This document shows, piece after piece, positions 4,022 to 41,792 of a stretch of 64,000 nucleotides of DNA (positions within the stretch are counted from its first letter, which is position 1; the number at the start of each line of letters is the position of its first letter). The DNA is from an uncultured bacterium (lineage in GTDB: Bacteria > Patescibacteriota > Saccharimonadia > UBA4664 > SCTI01): NCBI GenBank assembly GCA_963721685.1, contig CAVRJJ010000001.1, positions 132,870 through 196,869 of the forward strand. The letters are read 5' to 3'. The notes below the pieces were generated by a model. That model was given only the letters and a program-made list of their open reading frames with translations. It did no database searches and was not told the origin of the DNA. The translations under genes and the position numbers were made by a program.

Positions 4022-7000
4022 ATGGAACCACTTATGTTAGACCAAACCGCCAGCGAATTTAGTGCCGTTCGTTTAAGCTTAGCCAGTCCGCAACAAATAC
4101 TGGAATGGTCACACGGCGAGGTAACGAAACCGGAAACCATTAACTACCGCACCCAAAAGCCGGAAAAAGACGGCTTATTCTGCGAACGCATTTTTGGCCC
4201 AACTAAGGACTGGGAATGTTACTGCGGAAAGTACAAGCGCATCCGCTATAAAGATGTCGTATGTGATAAGTGCGGCGTGCGCGTTACCCGCAGCATCGTC
4301 CGGCGCGAGCGCATGGGCCATATTAGCCTCGCCGTTCCCGTAACCCACATTTGGTTCCTTCGCGGAACCCCCTCAAGTGTCGGCCTGCTGTTAAATATGA
4401 GCATCCGTGACCTCGAACGAGTTGTTTACTTTGCTAATTACGTGGTTTCCGAGGTGGATGATGAGCGCCGTAAGGCCGCGCTAGCGGAGCTTGAAGCCGA
4501 TTACAAGTCGCGCCGGGAAGAAATTGAAAAAGACCACACCGCCCAGGCCGCGAGTAAAGACGCGAATGTTAAAGAAATTGCCGCTTCCCAAAGCCGTGAG
4601 CTCAGCGACCTCCAAGTAACGTACGAGAACGCTAAAGAAGAGCTGGAAGGCTTGGCCCGTTTAACACTTTTAACCGAATCAAAATACCGCGATCTCAACA
4701 TGAAGTTTGGCGATGTTTTCAAGGCCGAGATTGGGGCTGAAGCGATCTATAACCTCCTTACATCAATTGATGTCGACCAGCTTGTACAGGACTTAACCAA
4801 AGAAGCTGAAGAGGCTTCAGGGCAAAAGCAAAAGAAAATTCTTAAGCGTCTTAAAACTCTTGAAGGTATGCGCAGCGCCGGAATTCGTCCCGAATGGACG
4901 GTCTTAAAGGAGCTTCCGGTTATTCCGCCCGACCTACGTCCGATGGTTCAGCTCGCAGGTGGCCGGTTCGCGGCTTCTGACTTAAACGACCTCTATCGCC
5001 GAGTTATTAACCGTAATAACCGCTTAAAGCGGCTGATTGAGCTCGACGCCCCGGAAGTTATCCGCCGTAACGAAAAGCGGATGCTTCAGGAAGCGGTAGA
5101 TGCCTTAATTGATAACAACGCCCGCCGGGAGCGCGCTGTTAGCTCTACCGGCACCCGCCGTAAGCTAAAGAGCATCAGCGACATGCTCAAAGGCAAGCAA
5201 GGCCGGTTCCGCCAGAACTTGCTGGGTAAGCGCGTTGATTATTCCGGACGTTCCGTAATTGTTTCCGGACCAAACCTAAAACTGAATCAATGCGGCTTGC
5301 CTAAAATGATGGCCTTAGAGCTGTTTAAGCCATTTGTTATGGCCAAGTTAATTGAAGAGGGCCATGCCCATAACGTGAAAAGCGCCAGCCGCATGATTGA
5401 ACGGGCTCGCGCCGAAGTTTGGGACGCGCTCGAGTTTATTATTACCGATAAGCACGTGCTGCTTAACCGCGCTCCCACCTTGCACCGTTTAGGCATTCAG
5501 GCATTCAAGCCAAAGCTGATTGAAGGCAAAGCCATCCAGCTCCATCCATTAGTATGCTCGGCTTTTAACGCTGACTTTGACGGCGACCAAATGGCGGTTC
5601 ATGTGCCGTTAAGTGCCGCCGCGCAGCACGAGGCAGCCACGATTATGCTGTCATCCAACAACCTTTTGCGTCCAGGTGACGGCTCAGCCGTAGTAAACCC
5701 CAGCCAGGACATGGTTTTGGGATGCTACTACTTAACGTATGACAAGTATGCCGGTGAGGAGCCGAAGAAGCATTTCTCAAGTTCCGATGAAGCCATTTAC
5801 GCCTATGAGTCCGGTGTGGTAAAGCTGCAGTCACCTGTTACCATTCCCGGTAAAAATGAACGGATGGTAACCACGGTTGGAAGAATCCTTTTCAACGAGG
5901 TTCTTCCCAAAGGCATTGATTATCGTAACGAAACGATGACAAAGAAGAAACTTCAGAGCCTAGTGGGAGAGGTGTTTGTCACCTGCGGCAATGAGGCTAC
6001 CGCGACAGTGGTTGATAGTATCAAAGACCTAGGTTTTTTCCACGCTACCTCTTCCGGCCTATCAATTGGCATTGATGACTTTGTCGTTCCGGAAGATAAG
6101 GAAGAGTTAATTGCCCAAGGCGAACATCAGGTTGTTGAACTTAGTAAACAGTTTGAAATGGGGTTAATAACCGAAGAGGAACGCTATCGGCGCACCATTG
6201 AAGCTTGGCAAAAAACTAACGAAAAGATTAAAGCCGAGCTTGAGGCAGACCTAGCCCATAGTAATGCCACCATCGGATTGTTCGTCGAGTCCGGCGCCCG
6301 CGGCGACCTAAGCCAGGTAAACCAAATTTCGGGTATGTTAGGGCTGGTCAATAACCCAACCGGCCGTATCATCGAACTGCCAATCCGATCCAACTACAAA
6401 GAAGGCTTTTCGATGTTGGAATACTTCAGCTCAACCCACGGAGCTCGCAAAGGTTTAACTGACACTGCCCTTAAAACCGCTGAATCGGGATACCTGACCC
6501 GCCGCTTGGTAGATGTTGCCCAAGACGTGGTGATTACCACCGAAGATTGCCGTGATACCGAAGGAAACATGGTAAGCGCCGCTGAATCAGAGGCTATGAG
6601 TGAACGCTTTACCGCCCGCTTGGCAGGCCGCGCCGCCGCCCAGGCCATTAAGGACGGCAGCACCACTATCGTTAAGAAAGGCGAGCTTATCAGCGATGGA
6701 GCGGCTGAGCAGATTGCAGCGGCCGGGATTACGGAAGTCTTAGTTCGGAGCGTACTTTCCTGCAAAACCCAATGGGGCATATGTCAAAAGTGTTATGGCA
6801 CGGACTTGGCCCGGGGTAGAATCGTTAACCTTGGTGAACCGGTAGGAGTAATCGCTGCCCAGTCAATTGGCGAGCCGGGAACCCAGCTGACCATGCGTAC
6901 TTTCCATAAGGGTGTAGCTGCCACCGGCGCGGATATTACCCAAGGCCTCCCGCGGGTGGAAGAAATTTTTGAAGCTCGCAGTCCAAAGGGACAAGCGGTG

Positions 7001-7879
7001 CTTGCAGAACTTGACGGCATTGTCGCTATTAAGCAAATAAGCGGTAAAACCGTTGTACGGGTAACCCCGGCGAACGTAAAAGTTACCGAGTATGCTTTAG
7101 GTGACCGCATTCCCGAGATCAAGACCGGCGACAAGGTTGAAATCGGTGATATTTTGGCCGCTGACGCTAAAGGCAAGAAGTTGATTAAGGCTAAGATTGA
7201 AGGAACCGTTGAAGTTACAAAGGAAAAAATTCTGCTTACCCACGCTGGCGGAGCCTTTAAGGACCATGTGATTCCAGCCTATCAGGAAATCGAAGTTCAA
7301 AACGGTGATTTAGTTGTCCGGGGCCAACGCCTAACTGAAGGCTCAATCAACCTCCAGGATATGCTCACGTTGCGCGGGGAACTGGCGGTCCAGCGTTACA
7401 TCGTGGGAGAGGTTCAATCGATTTACGCGTCGCAGGGACAGACGATTGCCGACAAGCACATTGAGATCATTATTCGCCAGATGTTTTCTCGGGTGCAAAT
7501 TGAAGAGCCAGGTGATAGTTTGTTCGTAACCGGCGACATTGTTTCCAAAATGAGCGTTATTGAAGAGAATGCTGAGCTTGAGAAGAAAAAGAAAAAGCTC
7601 GCAACTTTCGATCAGTTGCTACTACCAATCACCAAAATCTCTTTATCTTCCGATTCTTACTTAAGCGCCGCCAGTTTCCAGGATACCTCGCGGGTACTGA
7701 TTGGCGCTGCCATCCGGGGTAAAATTGATAAATTACGCGGTTTGAAAGAAAACGTGATTATCGGACGCCTAACCCCCGTGGGAACCGGTTTTCGCAAGGC
7801 TGAAGCCGACGCCAAACAGCCGGTTGCTGCGGCCGGCGCTGCCAAGGCAGCGTTGACTCGCGCCTCTGAATCTGATTAA
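4022..7879 (+). CDS. rpoC: DNA-directed RNA polymerase subunit beta'
   Basis: 1285-aa ORF with the zinc-binding CxxC N-terminus and the NADFDGD catalytic motif. Starts directly after the rpoB stop. Confidence 0.97.
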
Positions 7880-7905
7880 ATCAACTAAGTCTAACCAAGG
7901 AATCT

Positions 7906-8319
7906 ATGCCTACTATCAACCAGCTCATTCGTAAACCGCGCAGCGCCAAGGGCCGCAAGTCCAAGACGCCGGCGCTGGGGCGTACCCTTAACTCGCTCAA
8001 AGGCCGCAGCTATGAAAAGTCAGCACCTTTAAAGCGAGGGGTCTGTACCAAGGTTTCGACCGCTACCCCGCGTAAGCCTAACTCGGCTTTGCGTAAAGTA
8101 GCGCGTGTACGGTTAACCAACGGCATGGAAGTCACCGCCTATATTCCCGGCATCGGGCACAACCTCCAGGAGCACAGTGTTGTCCTCCTGCAAGGTCGTG
8201 GCCCGAAGGATTTAGCCAACGTTCGCTATACCATTGTGCGCGGTGCCCTTGATACTGCCGGGGTATCCAACCGCAAACAAGGACGCAGTAAATACGGCGC
8301 CAAGAAAGCTGCCAAGTAA
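7906..8319 (+). CDS. rpsL: 30S ribosomal protein S12
   Basis: 137 aa starting [12 protein letters not shown]..., typical S12. Confidence 0.97.
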
Positions 8320-8389
8320 TCACTAAATAAAGCATGACAACCCGTCCCAGAACTAGGGATAGCGGGAAGTATCAAAGGAGAAACGATTC

Positions 8390-8866
8390 ATGCCGCGCAA
8401 GAAGACCAAAGACCTAGCCAGAGATATCACGCCAGACATCCAGTACAAAAGCGTGCTGGTGGCGAAAATGATCAATAAAATTATGCATAGCGGTAAAAAG
8501 CGTTTAGCTGAAAAGCTGATGTATGACGCAATGGATGAAATTAAGCTTAAGTTGAAGGCTGAACCCCTGGAAGTGTTTGAAACAGCAATTAAGAATGTAT
8601 CTCCCCAGGTGCAGGTACGGGCAAAACGGGTTGGCGGCGCAACCTACCAAGTGCCAATGGAAGTTCGCGGTGACCGTAAAATCCATCTGGCTATGATTTG
8701 GATTTTAAAGGCTGCCCGCAGTAAATCCGGCCGCTCTTTCGATAAGGTGCTTGCCCAGGAATTGATGGATGCCTACAATAATACCGGCGACGCCATGAAA
8801 AAGCGGGAAGATACCCACAAGATGGCTGAAGCCAACAAGGCCTTTGCCCACTTCGCCCGTTACTAA
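8390..8866 (+). CDS. rpsG: 30S ribosomal protein S7
   Basis: 158 aa starting MPRKKTKDLARDITPD..., typical S7. Confidence 0.97.
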   Translation: MPRKKTKDLARDITPDIQYKSVLVAKMINKIMHSGKKRLAEKLMYDAMDEIKLKLKAEPLEVFETAIKNVSPQVQVRAKRVGGATYQVPMEVRGDRKIHLAMIWILKAARSKSGRSFDKVLAQELMDAYNNTGDAMKKREDTHKMAEANKAFAHFARY

Positions 8867-8935
8867 GGATTAGCTAGGCTTACCGGGTAGTAACTTTTCT
8901 GAGCATGGTCACCATGGCTAACGCCGGGTGACGAC

Positions 8936-10597
8936 ATGCCACAAAAGTTCTACCACGGCGCGCCTACCTTAAACGTGGCCAGGATGTATACTAGATGTAT
9001 GATCCAAACCCTAACCGATGTTACTCCTGAGGTTTTATCCGATATAGCTAAAGAGAAACAGCTGCGCCAGACATCTGAGCTGTTCATTCTTATTACGCTG
9101 GGAAGTCAGTTTGACCACTTAATAAAGCAGCAGCTTGATAAGCTGGGTGTGTATTGCGTAGTGGCCGATCCGGCAAGTGTGGCCCGGACAGACATTGAAA
9201 TGCTACAGCCAACCGGCATTATTATTTCGGGCGGACCTACATCGGTACACTCTGATCCCCCTCAAATGGATGCGACTATTTTTGATATTGGTATCCCGGT
9301 CTTGGGTGTTTGTCTAGGCTTTCAACAATGGGCACAGCACGTCGGGGTAACAGTGGCGAAAGCCCCCCATCAAGAGCTTGGCACCCATACCTTTACAGTA
9401 GAAGATGAGTCTGATGAACTGTTTGCCGGGCTACCTAAGCTTATGCCGGTTCTTGAGAGCCATAACGACCGGGTGGAACCGGACAAGCGGTTGGTGGTGC
9501 TGGGTTCAACCGAGCACGCCCCAGTAGCCGCTGCCCGCTATGAGCATTTATGGGGGGTTCAATTTCACCCGGAGGTTACCGAGTCCCAGTACGGCCCCGA
9601 AATGTATGAAAACTTTGTTTTTAAGATTTGTAAGGCTAAAGACCGCTTCCCAGCTTCCGATGTAGCCGCGGCTAAAATTGCTGAAATCAAGGAGCAAGTA
9701 GGGGATAAAAAAGTTTTGCTGGCGCTTTCCGGCGGATCGGACTCCTCAGTGGTGGCCTATCTATTGAAAGAAGCGTTGAGTCCCGGACAGGTTCGAGGAA
9801 TTTACATTAAAGGCATTGATCGGCCGGATGATGAGGCCTTTGTTGCCGAACTGTTTGGTCCTGAGGAGTGGCTCGACTTAAATATTGTTGATGCGACCGA
9901 CAATTTTCTAACAGTGTTAGTCGGTGTTGAGTCCATGCCCGACAAACGTCTGGCAATGCGTGGTGTTTATAAAAGTATTCTCGAAAGGGAAGCCAAACTG
10001 TTTGGGGCAGACTTTATCGCCCAAGGCACCCTTTACACTGACTTAAGTGAAAGCGGTAGCGGCCACAGCACCGGAGCGCGTAAAGCTCAAATTAAATTGC
10101 ATCATAATACAGGATTGGACTTTACAATCCCAGAGCTATCCCCCCTCGATGATATGGTGAAGGATACCGGTCGCAATATTGGGCGTCAGATTGGGGTCCC
10201 AGAATCACTGCTGATTCGCCACCCCTTCCCCGGTCCTGGCTTGATCGTGCGGGTTGAAGGGGAGGTTACGGCCGATAAACTGCAGATTGCCCGCCAGGTG
10301 GACGGCATCTATATTGAAGAGCTGAGAGCTGCAGGACTTTACGAGACCGTGTGGCAGGCCGGGGCAGTGGTTACTCGCTCAGAAACTACTGGTAGCAAGG
10401 GTGACGATGCCTCAACCGGATTTATTATCGCTTTATGGGCGGTGTGGAGTGTAAACGGTTTTACCGCTCAATGGGCTGAGATGCCTTATGATTTTTTGCG
10501 TCAGGTGTCGCGTCGGATCACCAATGAGGTCAAAGAGGTTGGGGCTGTCGTTTATCGGGTATCTGATAAGCCGCCGACCACTATTGAGTGGGGTTAG
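8936..10597 (+). CDS. guaA: GMP synthase (glutamine-hydrolysing); start codon uncertain (alternative ATG at 8999)
   Basis: N-terminal class-I GATase region (LGVCLGFQ, HPE) followed by a PP-loop ATP pyrophosphatase (LALSGGSDSSV). Unusual position inside the str operon between rpsG and fusA. Confidence 0.85.
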   Translation: MPQKFYHGAPTLNVARMYTRCMIQTLTDVTPEVLSDIAKEKQLRQTSELFILITLGSQFDHLIKQQLDKLGVYCVVADPASVARTDIEMLQPTGIIISGGPTSVHSDPPQMDATIFDIGIPVLGVCLGFQQWAQHVGVTVAKAPHQELGTHTFTVEDESDELFAGLPKLMPVLESHNDRVEPDKRLVVLGSTEHAPVAAARYEHLWGVQFHPEVTESQYGPEMYENFVFKICKAKDRFPASDVAAAKIAEIKEQVGDKKVLLALSGGSDSSVVAYLLKEALSPGQVRGIYIKGIDRPDDEAFVAELFGPEEWLDLNIVDATDNFLTVLVGVESMPDKRLAMRGVYKSILEREAKLFGADFIAQGTLYTDLSESGSGHSTGARKAQIKLHHNTGLDFTIPELSPLDDMVKDTGRNIGRQIGVPESLLIRHPFPGPGLIVRVEGEVTADKLQIARQVDGIYIEELRAAGLYETVWQAGAVVTRSETTGSKGDDASTGFIIALWAVWSVNGFTAQWAEMPYDFLRQVSRRITNEVKEVGAVVYRVSDKPPTTIEWG

Positions 10598-10684
10598 TTC
10601 TTCGAGAAAATAATGGACTTATGAACAATAATAGTATAAAATAACCTTCTGCCGTATTGTCCAACAACCAAAGGAGCATGGCAG

Positions 10685-11140
10685 ATGCACATTTTGGCCG
10701 AAGTGATTGGAGCCCCCCAGCAGGATTCAAATGGACGGTGTGGGGTGGTTGCACGACTGATCCGCCACGTCGACGCGTGCAAGACCCTCGAACGACCCGA
10801 CCAATGGGTCGTCGTCGGCTGCGAGGATGGCACAGCCCTTCTCGGTGACGTCATCATGATCGAGTTTGCGAGCGGTTACACCAGCGGTCCAGTTCGTTAC
10901 ACCAAGATCGGAGAGCCGGTCGGCAAGGTGTACCTCGGCGCACTCATGCTCAACTCCGGCGTCACGTTCAAGACCCCCGCGGAATGGCTCGCCGAGCTGC
11001 ATCCCGGTATGCGGCTTCGCTACGCTGACCGCAACATGTCGGAAACGCCCTGGTTCAAGGAGCCGACCACGCGCGAGGACTTCCAACGGCGGCTGCCTGG
11101 AGGTCGCCTTACCAATCGGCCGCTTCCGCAGGCTCGCTAG
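10685..11140 (+). CDS. hypothetical protein (151 aa), foreign codon usage, no recognisable domain
   Basis: Long ORF with very high third-position GC. RBS AAAGGAG sits 8 nt upstream of the ATG. Composition is diverse, unlike the Arg/Gly/Ala-rich overlapping frames. Confidence 0.55.
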   Translation: MHILAEVIGAPQQDSNGRCGVVARLIRHVDACKTLERPDQWVVVGCEDGTALLGDVIMIEFASGYTSGPVRYTKIGEPVGKVYLGALMLNSGVTFKTPAEWLAELHPGMRLRYADRNMSETPWFKEPTTREDFQRRLPGGRLTNRPLPQAR

Positions 11141-11172
11141 CCCAATCCGCTACGCTTACCCGAAGGAGGTGG

Positions 11173-11271
11173 ATGATGGAGAAGTGGGTTGGAAATTTGA
11201 TTCTGTGTGTTTGCGCACTCGGTTTCCTGGTGGTGGTCGTGATCGGCCTCATGGTCGGTTTCGGTCTCTAG
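11173..11271 (+). CDS. small hydrophobic peptide (32 aa, MMEKWVGNLILCVCALGFLVVVVIGLMVGFGL), single predicted TM helix
   Basis: Strong SD GAAGGAGG at 11163-11170 immediately before the ATGATG start. Lies directly downstream of the 151-aa ORF. Too short for the ORF track. Confidence 0.4.
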   Translation: MMEKWVGNLILCVCALGFLVVVVIGLMVGFGL

Positions 11272-11363
11272 GCCCCGCTAGTTCGACGACGAGCCTCCTG
11301 GCGCAACAGCCAGTTGAAGTTCCGCGCTAGTGGGGCTTCGTCGTGCAAGGGTCTATATGATTT

Positions 11364-11413
11364 GGGTACACGAAGTGTATCATTAAGGTACATTTAATGT
11401 ATCAATTCTGTAC
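11364..11413 (+). repeat. alternating short direct repeats GGTACA / TGTATCA (GGTACA-N5-TGTATCA-N4-GGTACA-N5-TGTATCA-N4-TGTACG)
   Basis: Read directly from the AT-rich segment upstream of fusA. Regular 11-12 nt phasing suggests protein-binding sites. Confidence 0.6.
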
Positions 11414-11425
11414 GGAGGTGTGAGC

Positions 11426-11464
11426 GATGAGTGCTTGGCTCGCTTGTTGTTGTATTTTCTCTTG
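11426..11464 (+). CDS. mini-ORF MSAWLACCCIFS (12 aa) with three consecutive Cys codons; possible leader peptide
   Basis: SD GGAGGTG lies 7 nt upstream of the ATG. The ORF ends 29 nt before an intrinsic terminator hairpin. Confidence 0.25.
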
Positions 11465-11492
11465 ATTTCTAGTAGAATTCAGGTCAAGTAAG

Positions 11493-11516
11493 GCGTCAGC
11501 CGACGCTTTTTATTTT
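11493..11516 (+). terminator. rho-independent terminator/attenuator hairpin (GCGTC-AGCC-GACGC followed by TTTTTATTTT) 48 nt upstream of fusA
   Basis: 5-bp GC stem with a 4-nt loop and a 10-nt T-rich tail, read directly. Confidence 0.6.
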
Positions 11517-11563
11517 GTCTTAATTTAGTCCGGTAGTTATTAGAAAGGAACCAGCTCAACCTT

Positions 11564-13645
11564 ATGGCACGCGAATATAGTTTAGAGAAGACCCGTAACA
11601 TTGGTATTATCGCGCACATTGATGCCGGCAAAACTACTACCACCGAAGGCATTTTGTATCGAACCGGAAAGACGCACAAGATTGGGGAAGTCCACCAAGG
11701 CGAAGCTACTATGGACTGGATGGACCAGGAGCGTGAGCGGGGGATTACCATTACTTCAGCCGCCACGACCTGTTTTTGGCATGACACCCGCATCAACATT
11801 ATTGATACCCCGGGTCACATCGACTTTACCGTTGAGGTTGAACGTTCACTTCGCGTGCTTGACGGCGCTGTAACGGTATTTGACGGTAAAATGGGCGTAG
11901 AGCCGCAGTCCGAAACGGTTTGGCGTCAAGCCGATAAATACGGTGTACCGCGTATTTGTTTTATTAATAAAATTAACCAAACCGGCGGGGACTTTTATAA
12001 GAGCCTTGATAGCATACACGAGCGGCTAAGCAAGCGGGCCCATCCCATCCATTTGCCAATCGGCTTTGAGCAGACCATTAATGGCATTATTGACCTGGTT
12101 GCTATGAAAGCTTACACCTACAAAGATTATACGGACAAAGAGCTGGTAGAGATCGATATTCCAGATGACATGAAGGAAAAAGCCGCCAAGTACCGGCAGG
12201 AGCTCATTGAGGCTGCCGTTGAGGTTGATGACGCGCTCTTTGAAAAGTATCTTGAAGGCACCGAGTTAACCAATGATGAGATAAAAGGCGCAATCCGTAA
12301 AAGCGTCCTTACTGGGAAGTTTTATGTGGTGTCAGGCGGTGACGGCCGCGGCGTCATTGTTGAGAAGTTGCTCGACGCGGTAGTTGATTACCTGCCAAGC
12401 CCGCTTGATGTTCCGCCGTTGATTGGCGTAGACCCTAAAACCGGTGAAGAAATAGTGCGCAAGCCAAGTGACGACGAACCATTTTCGGCGCTTGCCTTTA
12501 AAATCGCCGCCGACCCATTCGTGGGTAAACTGGTGTTCTTCCGGGTGTATTCCGGTACGCTCAAATCCGGTTCTTACGTGCTGAACTCCAGCACCGGACA
12601 AAAAGAGCGGATTGGCCGGATCTTGCGGATGCACGCCAATAGCCGGGAAGAGGTACAACAGGTGTACGCTGGTGAAATTGCCGCGGCCGTGGGCTTAAAA
12701 GGCACCACCACCGGACACACCCTAAGCGACGAGAAGAGTCCGATTATCTTGGAATCTATTACCTTCCCTGAACCGGTTATCCAGATCGCGATTGAGCCAA
12801 AGACTAAGGCCGACCAGGAAAAGATGGGTATTGCGCTGCAGCGCTTAGGCGAAGAAGACCCGACATTCCGCATTTCCAGCAACCATGAAACCGGCCAGAC
12901 CTTAATTGCCGGTATGGGCGAGCTGCACTTGGATATTATTGTTGACCGGATGAAGCGTGAGTTTAATGTGGAGGCTAACGTGGGCCGGCCGCAAGTTGCC
13001 TATCGTGAAACGATTAAGTCTGCCGCTAAAGGCCAGGGCAAGTTTGTGCGCCAGTCCGGCGGGCGCGGCCAGTATGGCGATGTTTGGCTGGAGCTTACCC
13101 CCCAGGAGCCGGGTGATGGCTACGAGTTTGTTAACGCCATTGTGGGTGGTGCGATTCCGCGCGAATACATTAAACCGGTAGACGAGGGCATTAAGGAAGC
13201 TATGTTGAATGGTGTGGTAGCAGGCTATCCGGTAGTGGATGTTAAGGCGAAACTGTATGACGGCTCCTACCATGATGTGGACTCCAGCGAAATGGCATTT
13301 AAGATTGCCGGCTCGATTGCCTTCCAGGAAGTCGCTAAAAAAGCCGACCCGATTATTTTAGAGCCAATCATGAAAGTGGAAGTAGTGGTTCCGGAAGAGT
13401 ATATGGGGGATATTATTGGCGACCTCAACTCAAAACGCGGCCGGATTGATAAAATGGACGACCGCGGTAGCGCGAAAGTGGTTGACGCGTTCGTGCCCCT
13501 TTCGGAAATGTTTGGCTATACCACCACCTTGCGCTCGATGACCCAAGGCCGGGGATCAAATACCATGGAGTTTTACCACTACGCTGAAGTACCGCCAAAT
13601 GTTGCCCAAGAGATTATAGGGAAACAGACCGCCGCTAAAGCTTAA
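11564..13645 (+). CDS. fusA: elongation factor G
   Basis: 693 aa with G-domain motifs [17 protein letters not shown] and NKMD-like NKIN. Confidence 0.97.
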
Positions 13646-14760
13646 GGCTTGTTGCAGCGCGTATCAATAAACTGATGCAGGCAGTTGTAACACTGCTCAA
13701 GGCTTTCTTCAAAAATATATTCTTCATCGGTATGAAGGCCGCCACCCCCTGGGTAAAACACGATGGGGTGAGCGCCGGATGCCGCGTAAAAGCGGGCCTC
13801 TGATCCACCCATAGAATCCACATACTCCACATTTTTGCCGACGCACTCACACATGATACTTTGCAGCAGCTTGGTGTCGGGGTGATCAATGTTAGATGAG
13901 TGGGCTTGTGCTTCCGGCCCGAAAGTAATGGTTAAATCCGGGTTAACCTTTCCAACCGACAGGATCCTATCTTTTATTGATTCTACGGTCTGAGGTGCCG
14001 CGAAGCGGATATCCAAATCAGCTTGGGCCCACGCTGGGACTTTGTTGATGGCTTCGCCGCCGGTAATTTTGCCCAAATTCACCGTGGTGTCCTTAGGGCT
14101 GTGTCCACTGCCTGCCGATAGTACCGTACGAATATCTTCAACCGCATGAACTACTAACTCAATGGCGTTAACCCCTTGTTGAGGTCGTGAGGAATGGGCA
14201 GCGGTGCCGCAGGCTTCAATATGTGTCCATAACGCCCCTTTGGCTGAGCGCTCTATCTTCCAAGGTCCACCGCCATCAGGTAGGATAACGGTTTTGCCCT
14301 TTAATTGAAGTTTTTCTGCTAAAAATGCGCTCCCATAAATACCGTTGACTTCTTCGTCGGTAGTAATGATAATGCCAATGGGTGGCTTAACGGAGCCAAA
14401 ATCGTTAGCTAGCTCCTCATAAATGGGAATAGCAAACTTCATATCATAGACGCCGCGACCGAGTAGCTTGTTGCCTTCTTTTTTCAGGTCAAACTGCTCT
14501 TCTTCACCTTCCACTACATCCAAATGGGCGCTTAGCCATACCTCGGTTTCGTCGGATGAGCGAAAATGGGCGTAGAGGTATGGGTAGCCCTGGTTTTCAT
14601 CCACACTGCATTTCATCCCGGCTGTCGTGAGATGGGTCTCAATGCGCTTTAGTTCAGCGCGATTTACATCGGATTCATTGGAAATCGTATGCGCGTGCAC
14701 CAACTCCGCCAACCGGTTCGTGAGCTTGCCGCTAAGTTGTTTTGATGGTTTAGTAGCCAT
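13642..14760 (-). CDS. M20 family metallopeptidase (ArgE/DapE/CPG2-like)
   Basis: 372 aa with GRGVYDMK and SAHLDVV motifs typical of M20 peptidases/deacylases. Confidence 0.75.
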
Positions 14761-14808
14761 TTTCTTGATTATAACGTAAAAACCGCTATCAGAGGATATA
14801 ATGCTTGC

Positions 14809-15363
14809 ATGAATGTATGTGTATTTTGTGCCGCGAATGACCTTGAAGATAAGTATATTGCTCCGGCTAAAGAGTTTGCTCGGTTACTGGCAGAGGGTGG
14901 CCATACACTGATATGGGGAGGGTCTGACCGTGGTCTGATGAAGGTTATGGCGGATGGCGTTAGTCAGGGTGGAGGAAAAATAATTGGCATATCAATGGAG
15001 GAGCTTAAGCACAATCTTCGTAAGAATGCGGATGAGATGATAATTGCCAAAGATTTAACGGAGAGAAAAGCAACTTTTTTGAAACGGGCAGATATTTTGG
15101 TGATGATGGTCGGAGGCATTGGGACACTTGATGAAACCACTGAAATTCTTGAACATAAGAAACACAAACGCCACGAAAAGCCGATAATCATCTTAAACAG
15201 TGCTGGATTTTATGATGGCTTGCGCCAGCAGTTAGAGCAGATGGAGAACGAAGGTTTTTTGACCGACCCATTGCGCGAGCTGATTCGATTTGCGGAAACG
15301 CCAAGGCAAGCACTAACGATAATTGATGAATACGCGCGGAAGGCTGGACCAAGTGGTTTTTAA
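14809..15363 (+). CDS. LOG family (cytokinin riboside 5'-monophosphate phosphoribohydrolase-like) protein
   Basis: 184 aa with the GGIGTLDE and IWGG motifs of LOG/TIGR00730 proteins. Confidence 0.75.
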   Translation: MNVCVFCAANDLEDKYIAPAKEFARLLAEGGHTLIWGGSDRGLMKVMADGVSQGGGKIIGISMEELKHNLRKNADEMIIAKDLTERKATFLKRADILVMMVGGIGTLDETTEILEHKKHKRHEKPIIILNSAGFYDGLRQQLEQMENEGFLTDPLRELIRFAETPRQALTIIDEYARKAGPSGF

Positions 15364-15405
15364 TCGATTGTTTGTTTATGCTTATATCACTAACCCGGAG
15401 CAATC

Positions 15406-16041
15406 ATGACTCAAGCTCAAGAAGTTGCCAGAATTTTACTTAAGATTAAAGCTGTAACATTGCGTCCAAATGAGCCTTACCGCTATACGAGCGGTATCTT
15501 GAGCCCCATTTATACCGATTGCCGACTACTTATTTCTTTCCCTAAGGAACGGGATCGTGTTATTGAACTATTGGCTGGGATGCTAAATGAAAAACCGGAC
15601 GTAATCGCCGGCACTGCTACCGCCGGAATACCTCACGCGGCGTGGCTGGCTCAAAAGCTGGGCCTCCCCATGATTTACAGTCGAAGCAAGGTGAAAGCCC
15701 ATGGTAAGCAAATGCAGGTAGAGGGGGTGCTTCAAGCTGGGCAAACTGCCGTTGTGGTTGAGGACTTAATTAGTACCGGTAGGAGTTCTCTCGAAACAAT
15801 TGAAGTTGTTCGAAACAGCGGCGCGACGGCAAATAAAATCCTGGCTATCTTTAATTATCAATTGCCACAGTCGGCAGAAAATTTTAAAACAGCGAATGTT
15901 GAACTTTCCGCGCTTACAAGTTTTAAAGATGTTGTTGCTTTAGCAGTGGAAGATGGCTACTTGGACGCGAAGGACCAAGAGATGGTTGTAGCTTGGTCGG
16001 CTGATTCAGCTAATTGGGCTAAAGACCAAGGCATAGAGTAA
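15406..16041 (+). CDS. pyrE: orotate phosphoribosyltransferase
   Basis: 211 aa with the PRTase motif VVVEDLISTGRS. Confidence 0.85.
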   Translation: MTQAQEVARILLKIKAVTLRPNEPYRYTSGILSPIYTDCRLLISFPKERDRVIELLAGMLNEKPDVIAGTATAGIPHAAWLAQKLGLPMIYSRSKVKAHGKQMQVEGVLQAGQTAVVVEDLISTGRSSLETIEVVRNSGATANKILAIFNYQLPQSAENFKTANVELSALTSFKDVVALAVEDGYLDAKDQEMVVAWSADSANWAKDQGIE

Positions 16042-16860
16042 TTAGCGAAATGCATTAATTTGGTCGCGGAGTTGTGTGGCTTTAGCCTGCGCGGCCTCGG
16101 CAAAGTCTTCATCAGCGGAGGCGTAAATAGTTTCACGCGATGAGTTGATAATAAGACCGGTACCGCTGGCGTTAAGGCCGCCCTTGAGGAGCTCGGCCTG
16201 GCCGCCTTGTGCACCAGTACCTGGAACCAGAAAAATCATATTATCGCCCACTAACTTACGCAGCTCAGCCAGCTCTTCCGGATAGGTGGCGCCAATCACT
16301 AGCTGGCAGTTCTCATTTTCATTCCATTTCTCGCTAACCGACTGAGCTACTTTCAAATAAAGCTTGGTGCCGCTAACTTCTAAGTCCTGAAATTCACCCG
16401 AACCAGGGTTGGAGGTGCGCACTAACACCATAATGCCTTTGTCCTTGTAGTCGAGGAACGGCTGGATAGCGTCGCGACCGAGATAGGGTTGGAGGGTTAC
16501 CGCGTCAACGCCAAGGTATTCAAACGCAAACTTAGCATAAGCATGGTTGGTGTTCCCAATATCGCCGCGCTTAAAATCTAGGATGATAGGGATGTGCGGA
16601 TAATTTTCGCTTATGTAGTGGCAGGTGGCGTGCAGTTGATCAATACCAGCCGTGCCCTCGGCCTCATAAAATGCCGAATTGGGTTTAAATGCGCAAACTA
16701 GGTCCGCGGTAGCATCAATAATGGCTTTATTAAAACTAAAAATCGTATCATTTTGCTTTTTGAAATGAGGGGGAATGCGATCGATGGTAGGGTCGAGTCC
16801 GACACAGAGCAGTGAGTTATTTTTCATTACTGCGTCGGCCAGCTTGGTTTTAAAATCCAT
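16042..16860 (-). CDS. pyrF: orotidine 5'-phosphate decarboxylase
   Basis: 272 aa with LDFKRGDIGNT, characteristic of OMP decarboxylase. Confidence 0.85.
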   Translation of the reverse strand: MDFKTKLADAVMKNNSLLCVGLDPTIDRIPPHFKKQNDTIFSFNKAIIDATADLVCAFKPNSAFYEAEGTAGIDQLHATCHYISENYPHIPIILDFKRGDIGNTNHAYAKFAFEYLGVDAVTLQPYLGRDAIQPFLDYKDKGIMVLVRTSNPGSGEFQDLEVSGTKLYLKVAQSVSEKWNENENCQLVIGATYPEELAELRKLVGDNMIFLVPGTGAQGGQAELLKGGLNASGTGLIINSSRETIYASADEDFAEAAQAKATQLRDQINAFR

Positions 16861-16881
16861 ATGATTACTTTAGTATAGATA

Positions 16882-17991
16882 GTGAATGGGAGCAAAAGAT
16901 TGACCAAGCTGACAACCTCGCTCTACGACCCGGCAAAGACATATGAAGACAATTTTAACCACGGACCTTTTGGCGAACCCGTGTCCGAGCCTTACCAAAA
17001 TGAGAGTGAGCCGCGGTATGAGGCGTTTGGATATAAGCTCTACTCGCCATTTGGCATCCCGGCCGGACCGCTTCTTAATAGCAACTTTGTAAAAGACGCT
17101 TTTGAACGCGGTTTTGATGTGGTGGTTTATAAAACACAGCGCAGCGTACCATTTGAGGTTAATACATTTCCTCAGATCTTATACGTTGACGTTGATGGCG
17201 ATTTAACCCATGAAAAGGCGGCTAAGCCGCTGTTAGGCCAAGCTTCAACCCCTAAGCCGGTTGAGAAGTTTTCCATAACCAACTCCTTCGGTATGCCGTC
17301 AAACGGACCGGACTATTGGATTGAAGATATGAAGAAAGCTTTAAGCTACCAAGGAAAAGGCCAGTTAATGGTTATGGGTATTGTCGGGACAATTCAAAAG
17401 GGGTTTAGCCAGGAAGATTATTTGCGAGACTTTGCCTATACCGCCGGGTTAGCGGTTGATGGCGGAGCAAAGGTTATCGAAGCCAACCTTTCCTGCCCCA
17501 ACGTGGCGACTGAAGGCGTGCTTTGCTATAGTCCCGATTCAGTCATTGACATCGTAAAGGGAGTAAAAGAACGGGTTGGTAACGTGCCGCTGATTATCAA
17601 AGTGGGGGATTACACACCCGACCAGCAGGAGCTGCTGGAAAAAATCGTGCAGGATGTTGCTCCTTATGTCGATGGCATCTCGGCAATTAACACCATTCCG
17701 GCGCCAATTGTTGATGAAGCCGGCAACCAGGCGCTGCCAGGCCCTAACCGGCTCAAAAGTGGGGTTTGCGGGGCCAGCATCAAATGGGCCGGATTGGACA
17801 TGAGCCGAAAACTAAAAAATATTAGAGATAAATACAGCCTAGAATATAAGATCATTGGCGTGGGCGGTGTTATGTCGGCTGCTGACTTTCAAGAGTATCG
17901 CGGCGCCGGTGCCGATATTGTACAGTCGGCAACTGGCGCCATGTGGAATCCGAATTTAGCGGCGGAGGTTAAGGCCAGCGGCAAGTTTTAA
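16882..17991 (+). CDS. pyrD: dihydroorotate dehydrogenase (with N-terminal extension)
   Basis: 369 aa with the NLSCPN motif and an FMN-binding TIM-barrel C-terminus (GVGGVMSAADF). Confidence 0.8.
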   Translation: MNGSKRLTKLTTSLYDPAKTYEDNFNHGPFGEPVSEPYQNESEPRYEAFGYKLYSPFGIPAGPLLNSNFVKDAFERGFDVVVYKTQRSVPFEVNTFPQILYVDVDGDLTHEKAAKPLLGQASTPKPVEKFSITNSFGMPSNGPDYWIEDMKKALSYQGKGQLMVMGIVGTIQKGFSQEDYLRDFAYTAGLAVDGGAKVIEANLSCPNVATEGVLCYSPDSVIDIVKGVKERVGNVPLIIKVGDYTPDQQELLEKIVQDVAPYVDGISAINTIPAPIVDEAGNQALPGPNRLKSGVCGASIKWAGLDMSRKLKNIRDKYSLEYKIIGVGGVMSAADFQEYRGAGADIVQSATGAMWNPNLAAEVKASGKF

Positions 17992-18740
17992 ATTAAGATT
18001 TGAATCCCTAACGCCACACAGACGATCGCCGATAACATAACGGCTGCTAAGACCAGTTTGTGATAGAGCTTGGCATTAACCCTTTTCGACAAAACCCTAC
18101 CCAATGTATAACCAATGATAACCACCGGTATCATCCATCCGGCTACAATTAAACCCTCAAGACGTAGGGATGAGCGCTGGAACAGGTAGATTGCCGGAAT
18201 GCTGGCACAGTTCATGAAAAGAAAAATCGCCGCTAAATTATGGCGGGTTTGGTTTGGCGTGGCATTGTGGGCTCTCATCCACATAACCAGCGGGGCCGGT
18301 GCTGTTGTGGCTGCGCTTGTTAGCAGTCCGGCCACAAAGCCGCTGGCGTGTATGCTTGGAGACACCTTAAAAAGCCTTTTGGGCGTAGGGAATAGGTATT
18401 CTTGGATCATCAAACTAACAGCAATTAACACGCCAATGGCCACCAAGAGGGCTCCCTTGTCGCCGTGGGTTACAATGTAGGCGCCCAATACGATCCCCGG
18501 CAAGGATGATACGAATAGTCTTATAACCACCGACCAGACAAGCTTACTGGTTTTACGTTCATTGAAAAGTACTAACAGGCATAAAATGTTAGCGATAAAT
18601 AAAATAATGGTTATCGCGGTCGCGGGATCAAAAAGAATAAAGAGGATCGGTAGTAAAAAGGCCGCGACGCCAAACCCTACAATTGTTTGGGCAATAACGC
18701 CCAGCAAAGTAAAAAGCGCAACAAGAAATAACTCAGTCAT
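17988..18740 (-). CDS. TSUP/TauE-SafE family membrane transporter (DUF81)
   Basis: 250 aa, polytopic, with the internal two-fold repeat typical of the sulfite-exporter TauE family. Confidence 0.65.
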   Translation of the reverse strand: MTELFLVALFTLLGVIAQTIVGFGVAAFLLPILFILFDPATAITIILFIANILCLLVLFNERKTSKLVWSVVIRLFVSSLPGIVLGAYIVTHGDKGALLVAIGVLIAVSLMIQEYLFPTPKRLFKVSPSIHASGFVAGLLTSAATTAPAPLVMWMRAHNATPNQTRHNLAAIFLFMNCASIPAIYLFQRSSLRLEGLIVAGWMIPVVIIGYTLGRVLSKRVNAKLYHKLVLAAVMLSAIVCVALGIQILI

Positions 18741-18816
18741 AAGCTGAACAATATCAGAATCCTGGCATAGAACCTATGGTTTCAACTGATAGGAACTGAT
18801 ATAATTATGTTTACCT

Positions 18817-19788
18817 ATGGAAATTACCCCCTCGAAGCGACTTCAAATTCTTAGCGGCAGTTCCAAGAGTGTGCTCCCAAAGTTGGTGGCAGACCACCTC
18901 GACATTAAATTAGGTGAGGTACACCTGGCACGTTTTGCCAACGGAGAAATCAGCTGTCGGCTTGATGAATCGGTACGAGGGGCCGATGTTTTTATTTTTC
19001 AAAGTCATGACCGACCGGTAAACGAATCAATTATGAAACAAGCCATTGTGATTGACGCGGCTAAGCGCGCATCGGCAAAACGGATCACCGCGGTGTGTCC
19101 GTTTTTTGGTTATGCCCGCCAAGACCGTAAAGCCACCGGCCGAGAACCGATAACCGCCAAGTTGGTGGTGGATATTCTGGAGGCAGCCGGGGCCGACCGG
19201 ATTGTCAGCCTTGATTTACATTCCGGGCAAATACAAGGCTTTTTTGACGGCCCGTTTGATCATTTAACCGCCATGCCGGTGCTGCTTGATTACATCCGTG
19301 GAAACTTAGGGGGGGATCTTGTGATGGTTGCCCCAGACGCCGGGCGGGTGAAAATGGCTGAACGCTATGCCGGACTGCTCAACGCCGGGCTCGCAATTGT
19401 GCACAAACGTCGCTCCCGCACTGAAGCCAACAGTGTTGAAGCATTGGACGTGATTGGCGAGGTGGAAGGTAAGCGCTGTGTGTTAATGGACGATATGATT
19501 GATACCGCCGGAACGATGTGCGCCGCCGCCGAGCAATTGAAAAAGCATGGTGCTGCTGAAATTTATGCTCTGGCTACCCATCCGGTTTTATCTGATCCGG
19601 CTATTGAGCGACTCAACAATTCACCGATTGATAAGGTTATTATCACGAATACGCTACCAATTCATACAACCAGTCCAACTGATAAGATTGAAGTGGTTTC
19701 TGTCGCCCCCATTATTGCTGACGCTATTTCAGCAATTTTCCACGACATCTCCGTCTCGCAAATCTTCAGTGGTGAGAATCAAATCTAG
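18817..19788 (+). CDS. prs: ribose-phosphate pyrophosphokinase (PRPP synthetase)
   Basis: 323 aa with VDLHSGQIQGFF and the DDMIDTAGT PRPP-binding loop. Confidence 0.9.
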   Translation: MEITPSKRLQILSGSSKSVLPKLVADHLDIKLGEVHLARFANGEISCRLDESVRGADVFIFQSHDRPVNESIMKQAIVIDAAKRASAKRITAVCPFFGYARQDRKATGREPITAKLVVDILEAAGADRIVSLDLHSGQIQGFFDGPFDHLTAMPVLLDYIRGNLGGDLVMVAPDAGRVKMAERYAGLLNAGLAIVHKRRSRTEANSVEALDVIGEVEGKRCVLMDDMIDTAGTMCAAAEQLKKHGAAEIYALATHPVLSDPAIERLNNSPIDKVIITNTLPIHTTSPTDKIEVVSVAPIIADAISAIFHDISVSQIFSGENQI

Positions 19789-19998
19789 CCTTTACAAACC
19801 CGTTATTTCTCCCTTATACTGGGAGAGTCCAAAAAACTTGGGCGTTATTTTTTGTGGCTGAAGGGTCGGACTCTTCAGTTCATGCGTTTTAAACAAGAGG
19901 TCCGACCTCAGTTTCATTGCAGAAAGCTGACCCGTTCGGCAAGCCCCCGCGGATGCAGGGTTATCATTCTGAAATGAAACCACAATCAAGGAGAACCA

Positions 19999-21180
19999 AT
20001 GGCAGAATATAAGCGAACTAAGCCACACGTTAACGTTGGTACTATGGGTCACGTTGATCACGGCAAAACTACCCTAACAGCCGCTATCACCGCGGTGTTA
20101 GCTAAAAAGCTGCCGAGCGATATCAACAAGGCAGTGGCTTTTGACCAAATTGATAAAGCTCCTGAAGAGCGCCAACGTGGTATAACCATTGCTACCTCAC
20201 ACCAAGAGTATGAAAGCGAAAAGCGTCACTATGCCCACGTTGATATGCCAGGTCATGCCGACTATGTAAAGAATATGATTACCGGTGCCGCTCAGATTGA
20301 CGGTGCAATTCTTGTGGTAAGCGCCGCTGACGGTCCTATGCCTCAGACCCGCGAGCACATTTTGCTCGCCCGCCAGGTAGGTGTACCTTATATTTTGGTA
20401 TTTATGAACAAAATGGATACCGCTGACCCCGAGCTGGCTGAGCTTGTAGAGATAGAAATTCGCGAACTGCTTGAAAAGCAGGGCTATGACGAGAACGCTC
20501 CAATTATAAAGGGTTCAGCCCTCAAGGCCCTTGAAGGTGACGCCGCTGCCGAAGAAGTTATTATGGAGCTGGTTAAAGCACTGGATGACTCTGTTCCGGA
20601 ACCGAAGCGTGAAGTTGATAAGCCGTTCTTAATGCCAATTGAAGATGTTTTCTCCATTAAAGGCCGCGGTACGGTTGCTACCGGTCGAATCGAGCAAGGG
20701 AAAGTTGCCGTGGGTGACGAGATTGAAATTGTTGGTATTCGTGACACGAAGAAAACCACCGTTACCGGCGTTGAAATGTTTAAGAAGCTGCTGCCTGATG
20801 CCCAGGCCGGTGACAATGTTGGCGCGTTATTGCGCGGTATTGAGCGTGACGATATCGAGCGCGGTCAGGTTTTGGCTAAGCCCGGATCAATAACTCCACA
20901 CACTGAATTTGATTCAGAAGTGTATGTATTGAAAAAAGAGGAAGGCGGCCGACATACACCGTTTTTCAAGGGTTACAAGCCTCAGTTCTATATTCGAACC
21001 ACCGATGTTACCGGAGAAATTCAGCTCCCTGAAGGTGTAGAAATGGTTATGCCAGGCGACAACATCCAGATGAAAGTAAAACTGATTGCCCCAATTGCTA
21101 TGCATGATGGTTTGCGTTTCGCTATTCGTGAGGGCGGCAGAACCGTTGGCGCCGGTGTTGTAACCAAGATTACCAAGTAA
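19999..21180 (+). CDS. tuf: elongation factor Tu
   Basis: 393 aa with [17 protein letters not shown] and NKMD motifs. AAGGAG RBS upstream. Confidence 0.97.
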
Positions 21181-21190
21181 CGGATATCTC

Positions 21191-21517
21191 ATGACCAAAG
21201 ACGACGCCGCACCTAAACAACGCATCCGTATTCGCCTCAAAGCTTACGACAATAAGGTCATTGACCAGTCGGCAAAGCAGATCCTCGATACCGCTACGCG
21301 GACCGGGGCTAAAGTGGCGGGACCAATTCCGTTGCCCACAGACCGTAAGGTGCAAACCGTTATACGCAGTCCTCACATTTTTAAAAAGTCCCGCGAGCAG
21401 TTTGAAATGCGGACCCACAAACGACTTCTTGATATAACTGAACCGACACCAAAAACCGTTGATTCGTTGATGAACCTCAATCTACCCGCTGGAGTTGATA
21501 TCGAAATCAAAATGTAA
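21191..21517 (+). CDS. rpsJ: 30S ribosomal protein S10
   Basis: 108 aa starting [20 protein letters not shown]..., typical S10. Confidence 0.95.
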
Positions 21518-21543: not shown

Positions 21544-22095
21544 TTGCGTGGACAATGGGTCTACAACAGGATACAGACCATGGATTTACCGCAATCAATT
21601 CAATATGCCGCGGCGATTATTGTAATCGTTGGCGCCGGTGTGCTCTTAGGGTTTTCCCTGCGCCGCCGTCAGCCGTTGCAAGCGGCTCATTCCCAACATG
21701 AACGCTTGCAAACGTACGCGGACCTCATTAACTCAATGGATGGCTTACGAACGGCTGATGAGCGGCACAAAGCCGAGTTTGTAGCAGCTTACTACCGGGC
21801 TTTGGTATACGCCCCTGACAGTGTCGTGACAAGCTTAAACGCTTTTTTGCAAACGGTTACGGCGTCCGAGGGCCAGTACGAGAGTTCCAAGCAAACCGCT
21901 GCTCGGGATGCTGCGGTGCTTCAGATGCGCAGGGATGCCCAAAAGCAACTTGATAACACTACCAACCTCAAGCAAGGTAACTTATACAGCATAGAAGTTA
22001 ACAGTGCCGAGTCAAATACCGCGATAATGAAACCTGAGTCTCAGGTGGACACTTCGCCGATTCTGGCGGAGGCGAAAGCGGGCAACGCCAAGTAA
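21544..22095 (+). CDS. hypothetical membrane-anchored protein (N-terminal TM, helical C-terminus); likely true start at M 21580
   Basis: ORF inserted between rpsJ and rplC with a hydrophobic N-terminus (AAIIVIVGAGVLLGF). No recognisable domain. Confidence 0.4.
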   Translation: MRGQWVYNRIQTMDLPQSIQYAAAIIVIVGAGVLLGFSLRRRQPLQAAHSQHERLQTYADLINSMDGLRTADERHKAEFVAAYYRALVYAPDSVVTSLNAFLQTVTASEGQYESSKQTAARDAAVLQMRRDAQKQLDNTTNLKQGNLYSIEVNSAESNTAIMKPESQVDTSPILAEAKAGNAK

Positions 22096-41100: not shown

Positions 41101-41175
<75 letters not shown>

Positions 41176-41178
41176 TAT

Positions 41179-41264
41179 GCCGGGTTACCCAAGTGGCCAA
41201 CGGGGGCTGACTGTAAATCAGCTGGTGTACGCCTTCGGGAGTTCGAATCTCTCACCCGGCACCA
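41179..41264 (+). tRNA. tRNA-Tyr (anticodon GTA), long variable arm
   Basis: Acceptor gccgggt/acccggc, anticodon loop CT-GTA-AA, long extra arm, CCA end. Confidence 0.85.
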
Positions 41265-41288
41265 ATAACGTTCCGACGCTTGCCGCGT

Positions 41289-41363: not shown

Positions 41364-41402
41364 TATATCAGATACAATGAAAGGTAACCCCAAGGAAGAC
41401 CA

Positions 41403-41763: not shown

Positions 41764-41792
41764 TCTAGTCTATAATAGCTCGGGTAACGCAT

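Follow-up and report, generated by a model that had tools for sequence, protein, structure and literature searches.

A GC-rich islet of two orphan genes in the guaA-fusA interval of a Saccharimonadia genome, probably acquired horizontally into a variable slot

The DNA examined here is a stretch of 64,000 nucleotides (the window) of contig CAVRJJ010000001.1 in assembly GCA_963721685.1, from an uncultured bacterium that the source names on the homologues of its guaA gene identify as a member of the Saccharimonadia (Saccharibacteria/TM7), in agreement with the guess made in the initial annotation of this sequence. The genes of its str region follow one another in the order rpoB, rpoC, rpsL, rpsG, guaA and fusA, and the 966-bp spacer between guaA (GMP synthase) and fusA (EF-G) contains two open reading frames (ORFs) that are the main subject of this report: orf151, predicted to encode a soluble orphan protein of 151 aa, and orf32, predicted to encode a hydrophobic micropeptide of 32 aa. 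Both appear in the ORF list at the positions originally assigned to them (Table 1), and each is preceded by a canonical Shine-Dalgarno (SD) sequence, as had been stated: AAAGGAG, at a distance of 8 nt from the ATG of orf151, and GAAGGAGG for the smaller gene. The two genes lie in a GC-rich islet that appears to occupy the interval from the guaA stop codon to the conserved promoter and leader of fusA, an apparent site of recurrent exchange. We consider it probable that this islet is a small accessory transcription unit, similar to a moron, that reached a permissive slot by horizontal transfer; its products would be an orphan protein in the cytosol and a micropeptide in the membrane. The earlier view of the locus as a foreign-looking cassette in a Saccharimonadia genome is confirmed as an observation, with corrected boundaries, and is partly supported as an interpretation.

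The composition of the islet is deviant at the level of nucleotides as well as codons. Among all 650-bp segments of the window, positions 10700-11350 reach the highest GC content (~0.61; mean 0.497, standard deviation 0.028, z ~4.1), and orf151 itself has a GC content of 0.623 with GC1/GC2/GC3 values of 0.66/0.47/0.73, its third positions lying above those of all 75 host chunks of 151 codons with which it was compared (mean GC3 0.515, standard deviation 0.051, maximum 0.642; z ~4.2). The GC anomaly described in the initial annotation is upheld by these checks of GC and GC3; two of the accompanying statements are not, in that the third positions of the host are roughly balanced (at ~50% GC overall) and not A/T-rich, and that the codons of orf151 ending in G or C amount to ~73% and not to "almost all". 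The low GC content of the two edges (0.36 and 0.41) brings the value for the full span of 10598-11520 down to just 0.546. The islet genes favor codons ending in C: GTC accounts for 7/12 and 9/17 of their Val codons and TTC for 3/4 and 8/8 of their Phe codons, the preference for GTC, TTC and ATC exceeds that in related Saccharimonadia, and TTA is wholly avoided. Such a bias fits many high-GC donors, some Actinobacteria included, and is not diagnostic. The housekeeping genes of related Saccharimonadia have GC3 values of 0.66-0.69 when pooled per locus and of up to 0.75 when taken singly, and the codon tables of these relatives suit orf151 better than does the host's own table. By GC, GC3 and the reciprocal codon models described below, the islet differs from its host in the way expected of acquired DNA, and its donor might have had a GC content of ~60% and a bias toward C-ending codons.

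A second GC-rich islet is present in the same window. Outside the ribosomal genes, only one further stretch of the window is a strong GC outlier, at positions 41921-42441. It belongs to a segment with a GC content of 0.60 that starts directly after a tRNA gene and ends with a strong intrinsic terminator. Its first gene, orf162, which is likewise an orphan in the protein search, has a GC3 of 0.74 and is followed by an ORF of 65 aa with two hydrophobic helices. Neither of these ORFs has a family match in Pfam, PHROGs, PADLOC or NCBIfam, the 65-aa ORF showing a sub-threshold hit to Phage_holin_2 (E 0.16), and there is no sequence similarity between orf151 and orf162 or between the two membrane peptides. 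When scored under a codon model built from orf162, orf151 obtains a log-likelihood ratio of +0.09 per codon, as compared with a mean of -0.22 (standard deviation 0.06, maximum -0.10) for the 75 host chunks; under the model built from orf151, orf162 obtains +0.18 and the host chunks a mean of -0.16 (maximum -0.05). Both islets probably come from the same kind of source, and the recurrence of their architecture and codon bias argues against noise and in favor of genuine units acquired from a similar source. We regard this twin occurrence as the most interesting result of the analysis.

Table 1. Positions, in window coordinates, of the two islets, their signals and the flanking genes
Feature	Position	Strand	Basis
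rpoC	4022-7879		str-region order
rpsL	7906-8319
rpsG	8390-8866
guaA (GMP synthase), left flank of islet	8936-10597	+	Pfam
Promoter-like TGGACT-17-TAAAAT, in the AT-rich junction right after the guaA stop	10614-10642	+	consensus scan
Shine-Dalgarno sequence AAAGGAG of orf151	10670-10676	+	sequence reading; compared with host start regions
orf151, 151-aa soluble orphan protein	10685-11140	+	ORF list, composition, frame score, three-base periodicity
Shine-Dalgarno sequence GAAGGAGG of the small peptide gene	11162-11169	+	sequence reading
orf32, 32-aa single-pass hydrophobic micropeptide M(M)EKWVGNLILCVCALGFLVVVVIGLMVGFGL	11173-11271	+	ORF list
GC-rich imperfect 87-nt hairpin directly 3' of the orf32 stop, closing the GC-rich part	11269-11355	+	RNA fold
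Pair of exact 17-bp palindromes GGTACA-N5-TGTATC at a spacing of 22 bp (two helical turns)	11365-11403	.	pattern search
Native fusA upstream block, outside the islet (TTG 11450-11452; TAGAAT 11473-11478; hairpin and U-run AGGCGTCAGCCGACGCTTTTTATTTTGTC 11491-11519)	11450-11519	+
fusA (EF-G), right flank of islet	11564-13645	+	ORF list; Pfam annotation of relatives' orthologues
Second GC-rich islet, directly after the tRNA gene at 41793-41865	41921-42750	+	GC outlier scan, ORFs, codon bias, fold
orf162, soluble orphan led by Shine-Dalgarno sequence CAAGGAGG	41970-42458	+
65-aa ORF with two hydrophobic (transmembrane) helices	42463-42660	+
Strong intrinsic terminator of the second islet	42711-42750	+	RNA fold

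The smaller gene of the first islet has a second ATG at 11176, which lies 6 nt after GAAGGAGG, has the better SD spacing and yields a product of 31 aa. An independent gene call on a Logan assembly likewise gives 31 aa, and this start is the more likely one; we refer to the gene in this form as orf31. The product was said in the initial annotation to be a hydrophobic peptide of the membrane type, and its Kyte-Doolittle maximum over 19 residues (3.16) and its GRAVY value (2.05) agree with that description. Nearly all of the peptide is a single transmembrane (TM) helix, with a short polar N-terminus and a hydrophobic, uncharged C-terminus (...MVGFGL), and no family match was found for it in Pfam, PHROGs, NCBIfam or PADLOC. 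The Logan assembly, made with a second assembler from run ERR12037361, places guaA, orf151 and the 31-aa gene on one contig and separately reproduces orf162, which bears on the possibility that reads of an organism with a higher GC content were joined into the contig as a chimera. The source of the window is indeed a metagenome-assembled contig, but such an artefact is extremely improbable: the segment lies inside a contig of 405 kb with native sequence on both sides, its junctions fall in intergenic DNA and leave the signals intact, and two such clean chimeric insertions would be unlikely to have arisen.

Evidence that the islets are coding comes from the three-base periodicity in GC, which is significant for orf151 and for orf162 (0/5000 shuffles in each case), and from the ranking of reading frames, in which the annotated frame is the best of six for both genes under a codon model derived from related genomes. 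The SD sequences of orf151, orf31 and orf162 are well spaced, and in the window a strong SD is restricted to a subset of genes, namely rpoB, rpoC, rpsG, tuf and the islet genes. We take orf151, orf31 and orf162 to be intact genes on the basis of these features, the support being weaker for orf31, where it consists of the SD, the ATG and the hydrophobic helix. As a separate observation, many genes in the window have a TATAAT-like box 5-10 nt before their start and no SD (for example those at 14760(-), 14809, 18817, 22669, 42802 and 55608), which suggests that leaderless mRNAs, or mRNAs with very short leaders, are widespread in this genome.

Searches for relatives of the islet proteins were extensive and gave no credible homologue of orf151 among ~15 billion proteins. 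A word-index search of 5.8 G clustered proteins returned only the self-match, and an exhaustive search of 1.84 G cluster representatives returned the self-match plus one weak match to a TIR-NACHT-WD40 protein of 1444 aa (E 2e-4), which is based on the weak likeness of residues 22-55 (window 10748-10849; VARLIRHVDACKTLERPDQWVVVGCEDGTALLGDV) to a single blade motif of the WD40 type. The score of that match is inflated, since five repeats of the large protein match the same query segment, and it probably does not reflect homology. GenBank phages and PLSDB plasmids were negative for orf151 (blastn, tblastn), as were IMG/VR, the JGI metagenomes and the GTDB genomes for the islet proteins (back-translated peptides). 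Nor does orf151 have a match in Pfam, PHROGs, NCBIfam, PADLOC or, by sequence, the PDB (for Pfam, NCBIfam and the PDB, no match at E <=1; best PDB E 1.1), and the alternative frames of the region, of 154 aa on the plus and 119 aa on the minus strand, found no match in NCBIfam or the related loci. In the predicted structure, the N-terminal half appears rich in beta strands and the C-terminus appears to be a basic tail that is helical or probably disordered. There is no signal peptide in orf151, the N-terminus of which (MHILAEVIGAPQQDSNGR) does not read as signal-like, and no recognizable toxin domain.

These negative results are pertinent to the origin and function proposed in the initial annotation, according to which the islet is DNA from the actinobacterial host of an epibiont and encodes a toxin/immunity or phage-exclusion pair, with orf151 as the toxin or sensor and orf31 as the immunity factor or effector. 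Conflict systems commonly pair a soluble protein with a small TM protein, and the C-ending bias of the islet, being above that of related Saccharimonadia, is typical of many high-GC Gram-positive bacteria. The organism belongs to the Saccharimonadia, and the Saccharibacteria in culture are epibionts of Actinobacteria with natural competence (PMC10633639; PMC8406219). However, no homologue was found in the ~15 billion proteins searched, among them those of the well-sampled Actinobacteria, or in GTDB, phages, plasmids, IMG/VR and JGI, and the GC3 of 0.73 and GC of 0.61 fall inside the range of related Saccharimonadia genes, which leaves the actinobacterial reading of the codons unsupported. The absence of any signature in Pfam, NCBIfam, PHROGs, PADLOC and the PDB, and of a signal peptide or toxin domain in orf151, speaks in the same way against the proposed toxin/immunity or exclusion module, and we find this explanation, origin and function together, quite improbable.

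The boundaries of the islet are sharp. On the left, alignment shows that conservation with relatives stops exactly at the stop codon of guaA, the nucleotide identity to the closest relative being ~0.65-0.82 along guaA and 0.42 in the alignment window across its stop. Co-import of the islet with the 3' end of guaA by homologous recombination was considered and rejected, as guaA has no internal drop in identity, no mosaicism and no shift in GC3. On the right, the variable DNA is limited by the native upstream block of fusA, in which the TAGAAT box is represented by TACAAT or TATAAT in relatives and is followed by a hairpin and U-run located ~45 nt upstream of the fusA start codon. The first 18 nt of this leader hairpin are invariant in 5/5 aligned lineages; 33 nt (11491-11523) are 100% identical in the relatives L002-L004 and 29/29 nt in L008, where the identity of the guaA proteins is ~72%. 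The same block is found at 10687-10719 in L002, 5327-5355 in L008, 4647-4673 in L005 and 3612-3642 in L009, and it has no match in Rfam. A hairpin at 11490-11509 that looked like a terminator in our scan, and that might have been assigned to the islet, is thus not part of it, since the fusA leader is conserved in the relatives. The leader hairpin with its U-run could be a 5' attenuator or stabilizer of fusA mRNA or a common terminator for whatever cargo lies upstream, and it may interest those who study gene regulation in the Patescibacteria. A mini-ORF of 12 aa (MSAWLACCCIFS, 11428-11466) was dismissed as a gene because of its overlap with a hairpin and with the conserved -35 region of fusA. 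The lineage-specific segment accordingly extends over ~10598-11445; of the cassette originally drawn at 10598-11520, the part up to ~11445 stands as foreign-looking, and 11450-11520 are the native promoter and leader of fusA.

Comparison with relatives indicates that this interval has been occupied in different ways. In every fetched relative with at least ~70% guaA identity, guaA adjoins fusA, and rpsG lies upstream of it in each contig long enough to include that region; at 67% and 65% guaA identity (two loci), guaA lies elsewhere, near IMP dehydrogenase. The slot between guaA and fusA holds a Big_7/fn3 protein of 913-978 aa in L002-L004 (guaA 72%), an ABC-F ATPase in L005-L007 (guaA 71%), accompanied in L005 and L006 by an ORF of 189 aa, an ABC-F ATPase in L008 (guaA 72%), and two orphans of 282 and 116 aa in L009 (guaA 71%). 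In the closest relative, L001 (GCA_964547205.1; guaA 87%, ~76% nucleotide identity over rpoC-guaA), the slot holds an unrelated stretch of 58% GC (within 7554-7919) that contains a bidirectional terminator (~7600-7633) and a convergent short ORF (7657-7836) and runs to the contig end; it, too, may have GC-rich foreign cargo. Altogether, there are five cargo states across six lineages, and since the cargo differs from lineage to lineage, we regard the guaA-fusA interval as a variable slot, with contents that, to judge from these sequences, are routinely exchanged in the clade. A comparison of syntenic regions had been recommended in the initial annotation, and it disclosed no orthologous cassette: in tblastn and blastn searches of L001-L009 the islet matched nothing but the fusA leader, and its absence from the syntenic site in all of these relatives is what would be expected of an acquired islet. 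The same comparison removes the earlier claim that the cassette breaks a conserved order rpsL-rpsG-fusA-tuf, as guaA natively adjoins fusA in the clade, fusA and tuf are 6.3 kb apart in the window, and the slot is variable.

The islet is not a relic of the ABC-F or fn3 genes that fill the slot in relatives, to which it has no similarity in any frame. The slot copies of ABC-F (2262-3923 in L005 and 3584-5281 in L008) have a homologue in the window at 43750-45396 (-), 50-52% identical to them, which adjoins a rhodanese gene that borders the second islet, and the slot may ancestrally have been occupied by an ABC-F gene.

The variability of the slot could also be accommodated without any transfer, if orf151 and orf31 were native genes that evolved rapidly or arose de novo in this lineage and owed their GC excess to a local bias of mutation or selection. 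Patescibacterial genomes are rich in orphan genes, and the slots around guaA in relatives hold lineage-specific orphans and small membrane proteins of host-like composition. That very cargo, however, does not deviate in composition, whereas in the 64 kb the strongest outliers in GC are the two islets, which are sharp-edged. Their codons fit each other, and higher-GC genomes, better than they fit the host, 0 host chunks reach the score obtained under the reciprocal models, and only one or two host chunks reach the islet score under 4/5 codon models derived from relatives. Native origin is therefore a very doubtful alternative to the acquisition of the islet from outside.

Several features of the islet are those of a self-contained unit. 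The promoter-like site immediately after guaA may be the islet's own promoter, as judged by its match to the consensus, and transcriptional read-through from guaA is also possible because the hairpin at the 3' end of guaA (10578-10591) is weak. The large hairpin that closes the GC-rich part has a predicted folding energy of -42.1 kcal/mol (z -3.4; 0/200 shuffles fold as well) and is a probable terminator of the islet or an RNA-stabilizing stem. Between this hairpin and the fusA promoter block lie the two palindromes listed in Table 1, which are the only matches to their pattern in the window; the pair folds as a hairpin (z -4.3), is not conserved in relatives and looks like a candidate operator. 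Because they are lineage-specific, the palindromes probably belong to the cargo of the slot.

From these elements, the following scenario might be constructed. A unit made up of a site resembling a promoter, two genes with SD sequences and a large hairpin at its end would have been inserted between two housekeeping genes, where orf151 and orf31 are probably co-transcribed, either from their own promoter or by read-through from rpsL-rpsG-guaA. The unit might have entered by natural transformation or as a fragment of a phage or of a mobile element. Experiments with Saccharibacteria in culture have established natural transformation that depends on ComEC (PMC10633639), and the competence of these relatives makes it a plausible route of entry. 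As a guess to which we attach low confidence, the two products might work jointly at the membrane in an accessory role or as a pair of the conflict type, one as sensor or toxin and the other as effector or immunity factor, to judge by the architecture.

A number of points weigh against the acquisition of a functional unit. No homologue in a donor was found among proteins, phages, plasmids, IMG/VR, JGI or GTDB, and transfer is consequently deduced from composition and patchy distribution only. The closest relative is only ~76% identical in nucleotides and continues for no more than 366 bp past guaA before its contig ends, which weakens any statement about the timing of the gain or about the polarity of gain versus loss. 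The flanks of the islet have no integrase, terminal inverted repeats or target-site duplication, the short repeats found there being at chance level; there is no mobility gene among the neighbors in the window and no further copy of the islet in it, and a mobile element with such terminal repeats or duplications was rejected as the form of the islet. The AF2 models computed without an alignment are of low confidence (pLDDT 44 for orf151 and 41 for orf162), and give no indication of function, and the frame of orf31 is not favored by a generic codon model. Lastly, the length of orf151 is not significant in GC-rich DNA, as an equally long stop-free run occurs in ~10% of shuffles of the region (P ~0.1), and three overlapping ORFs of >100 aa are present in the islet region.

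The last of these points, together with the antisense frame of orf151, which is a close second to the annotated one (-0.001 versus +0.055), and with the orphan status and poor AF2 models of the ORFs, would be in keeping with inert foreign DNA that became fixed in a permissive slot, the ORFs being relics or by-products of high GC content. We consider this unlikely, though, in view of the periodicity in the annotated frame and of the three instances, over two islets, in which an ATG with a well-spaced strong SD leads through to a stop codon. The genes also have the same orientation as the flanking genes, terminal hairpins are present, and the two-gene layout is found twice. The acquisition of a coding unit remains the explanation that we prefer.

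The islet can be compared with several known kinds of genetic units. It resembles phage morons and other small genomic islets in its self-contained build, which comprises a promoter-like site, genes led by SD sequences and a hairpin at the end, in having a GC content unlike that of its flanks, in lying between conserved genes and in being absent from relatives. It differs from morons in having two genes instead of the usual one and in being part of no recognizable prophage, with no phage genes nearby and with negative results in PHROGs, GenBank phages and IMG/VR. Like the variable slots and integration hot spots of other genomes, the guaA-fusA interval has a cargo that varies with lineage between conserved flanks and a conserved fusA leader, and the second islet abuts a tRNA gene in the manner of tRNA-adjacent islands; unlike integration hot spots, the slot has no integrase, att repeats or target-site duplication, and the cargo is tiny (~0.85 kb). 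Exchange of cargo by natural transformation, with homology in the flanks, would be a plausible process.

With the type I toxin-antitoxin toxins (Hok, Fst, TisB, Ldr), orf31 shares the character of a peptide of ~30 aa (and hence of <60 aa) that consists of a TM helix, as well as a mobile-looking context, but it has no similarity to the known families, and its partner is an upstream protein gene and not a small RNA. A consensus-based scan of 11100-11450, which is a weak negative, showed no promoter-like site on the minus strand for an antisense RNA, and Rfam gave no match. The order and sizes of the genes, with a soluble and a membrane partner, would be compatible with a two-gene system of defense or abortive infection similar to RexAB, the likeness being one of architecture only; in contrast to such systems, the islet has no recognizable sensor domain, and none of the defense profiles of PADLOC matched orf151, orf32, orf162 or the 65-aa ORF. 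Three other classes lacked support: a polymorphic toxin or bacteriocin-immunity module, as the larger protein has no recognizable toxin domain or secretion signal; a phage lysis cassette of holin and endolysin, as matches to PHROGs are at E 0.16 or worse and orf31 has no charged C-terminal tail; and an integron cassette, an idea that was rejected, as inspection of the hairpin at 11269-11355 revealed no properly placed RYYYAAC/GTTRRRY pair and there is no integrase in the neighborhood.

The wider gene order of the window has some traits of its own. Positions 7906-21517 are a str/S10 region mixed with genes of nucleotide metabolism, in which guaA lies between rpsG and fusA, and this placement of guaA inside the str cluster may also interest those who work on gene regulation in the Patescibacteria. 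The seven genes between fusA and tuf-rpsJ are those for an M20 peptidase (-, convergent), LOG, a phosphoribosyltransferase (PRTase), pyrF (-), pyrD, TauE (-) and prs. Between rpsJ and an mgsA-like AAA+ gene there are two ORFs of host-like composition, at 21544-22095 (183 aa) and 22152-22616 (154 aa), which have no significant match in Pfam and are a further site of lineage-specific genes within the ribosomal cluster. Rfam identified four tRNA genes at 41101-41865 and an L10 leader (RF00557, 50.6 bits) at 63140-63270, upstream of the ORF at 63276.

As it stands, the guaA-fusA islet is an ordinary small islet of horizontal gene transfer, and it does not amount to evidence for the capture of actinobacterial genes. 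The two alike units of orphan plus micropeptide within 64 kb are a candidate pair for tests of expression and toxicity. It is conceivable, at long odds, that they belong to a class, as yet undescribed, of very small mobile modules with two genes, each made up of a sequence-unique soluble protein and a membrane micropeptide, that are taken up by transformation from the hosts of these epibionts or from the phages of those hosts and are used in epibiont-host or anti-phage conflict. If that were true, the common codon bias and architecture would point to a shared donor pool and give a clue to the host of these uncultured Saccharimonadia, and if a donor were ever to be found, the islets would become a handle on the host or the virome of the lineage. 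If our preferred reading of the islet as an acquired unit in a permissive slot is right, the reduced genomes of epibiotic Saccharimonadia would keep intergenic slots in which small foreign units can be swapped, one of them located beside core genes of translation.

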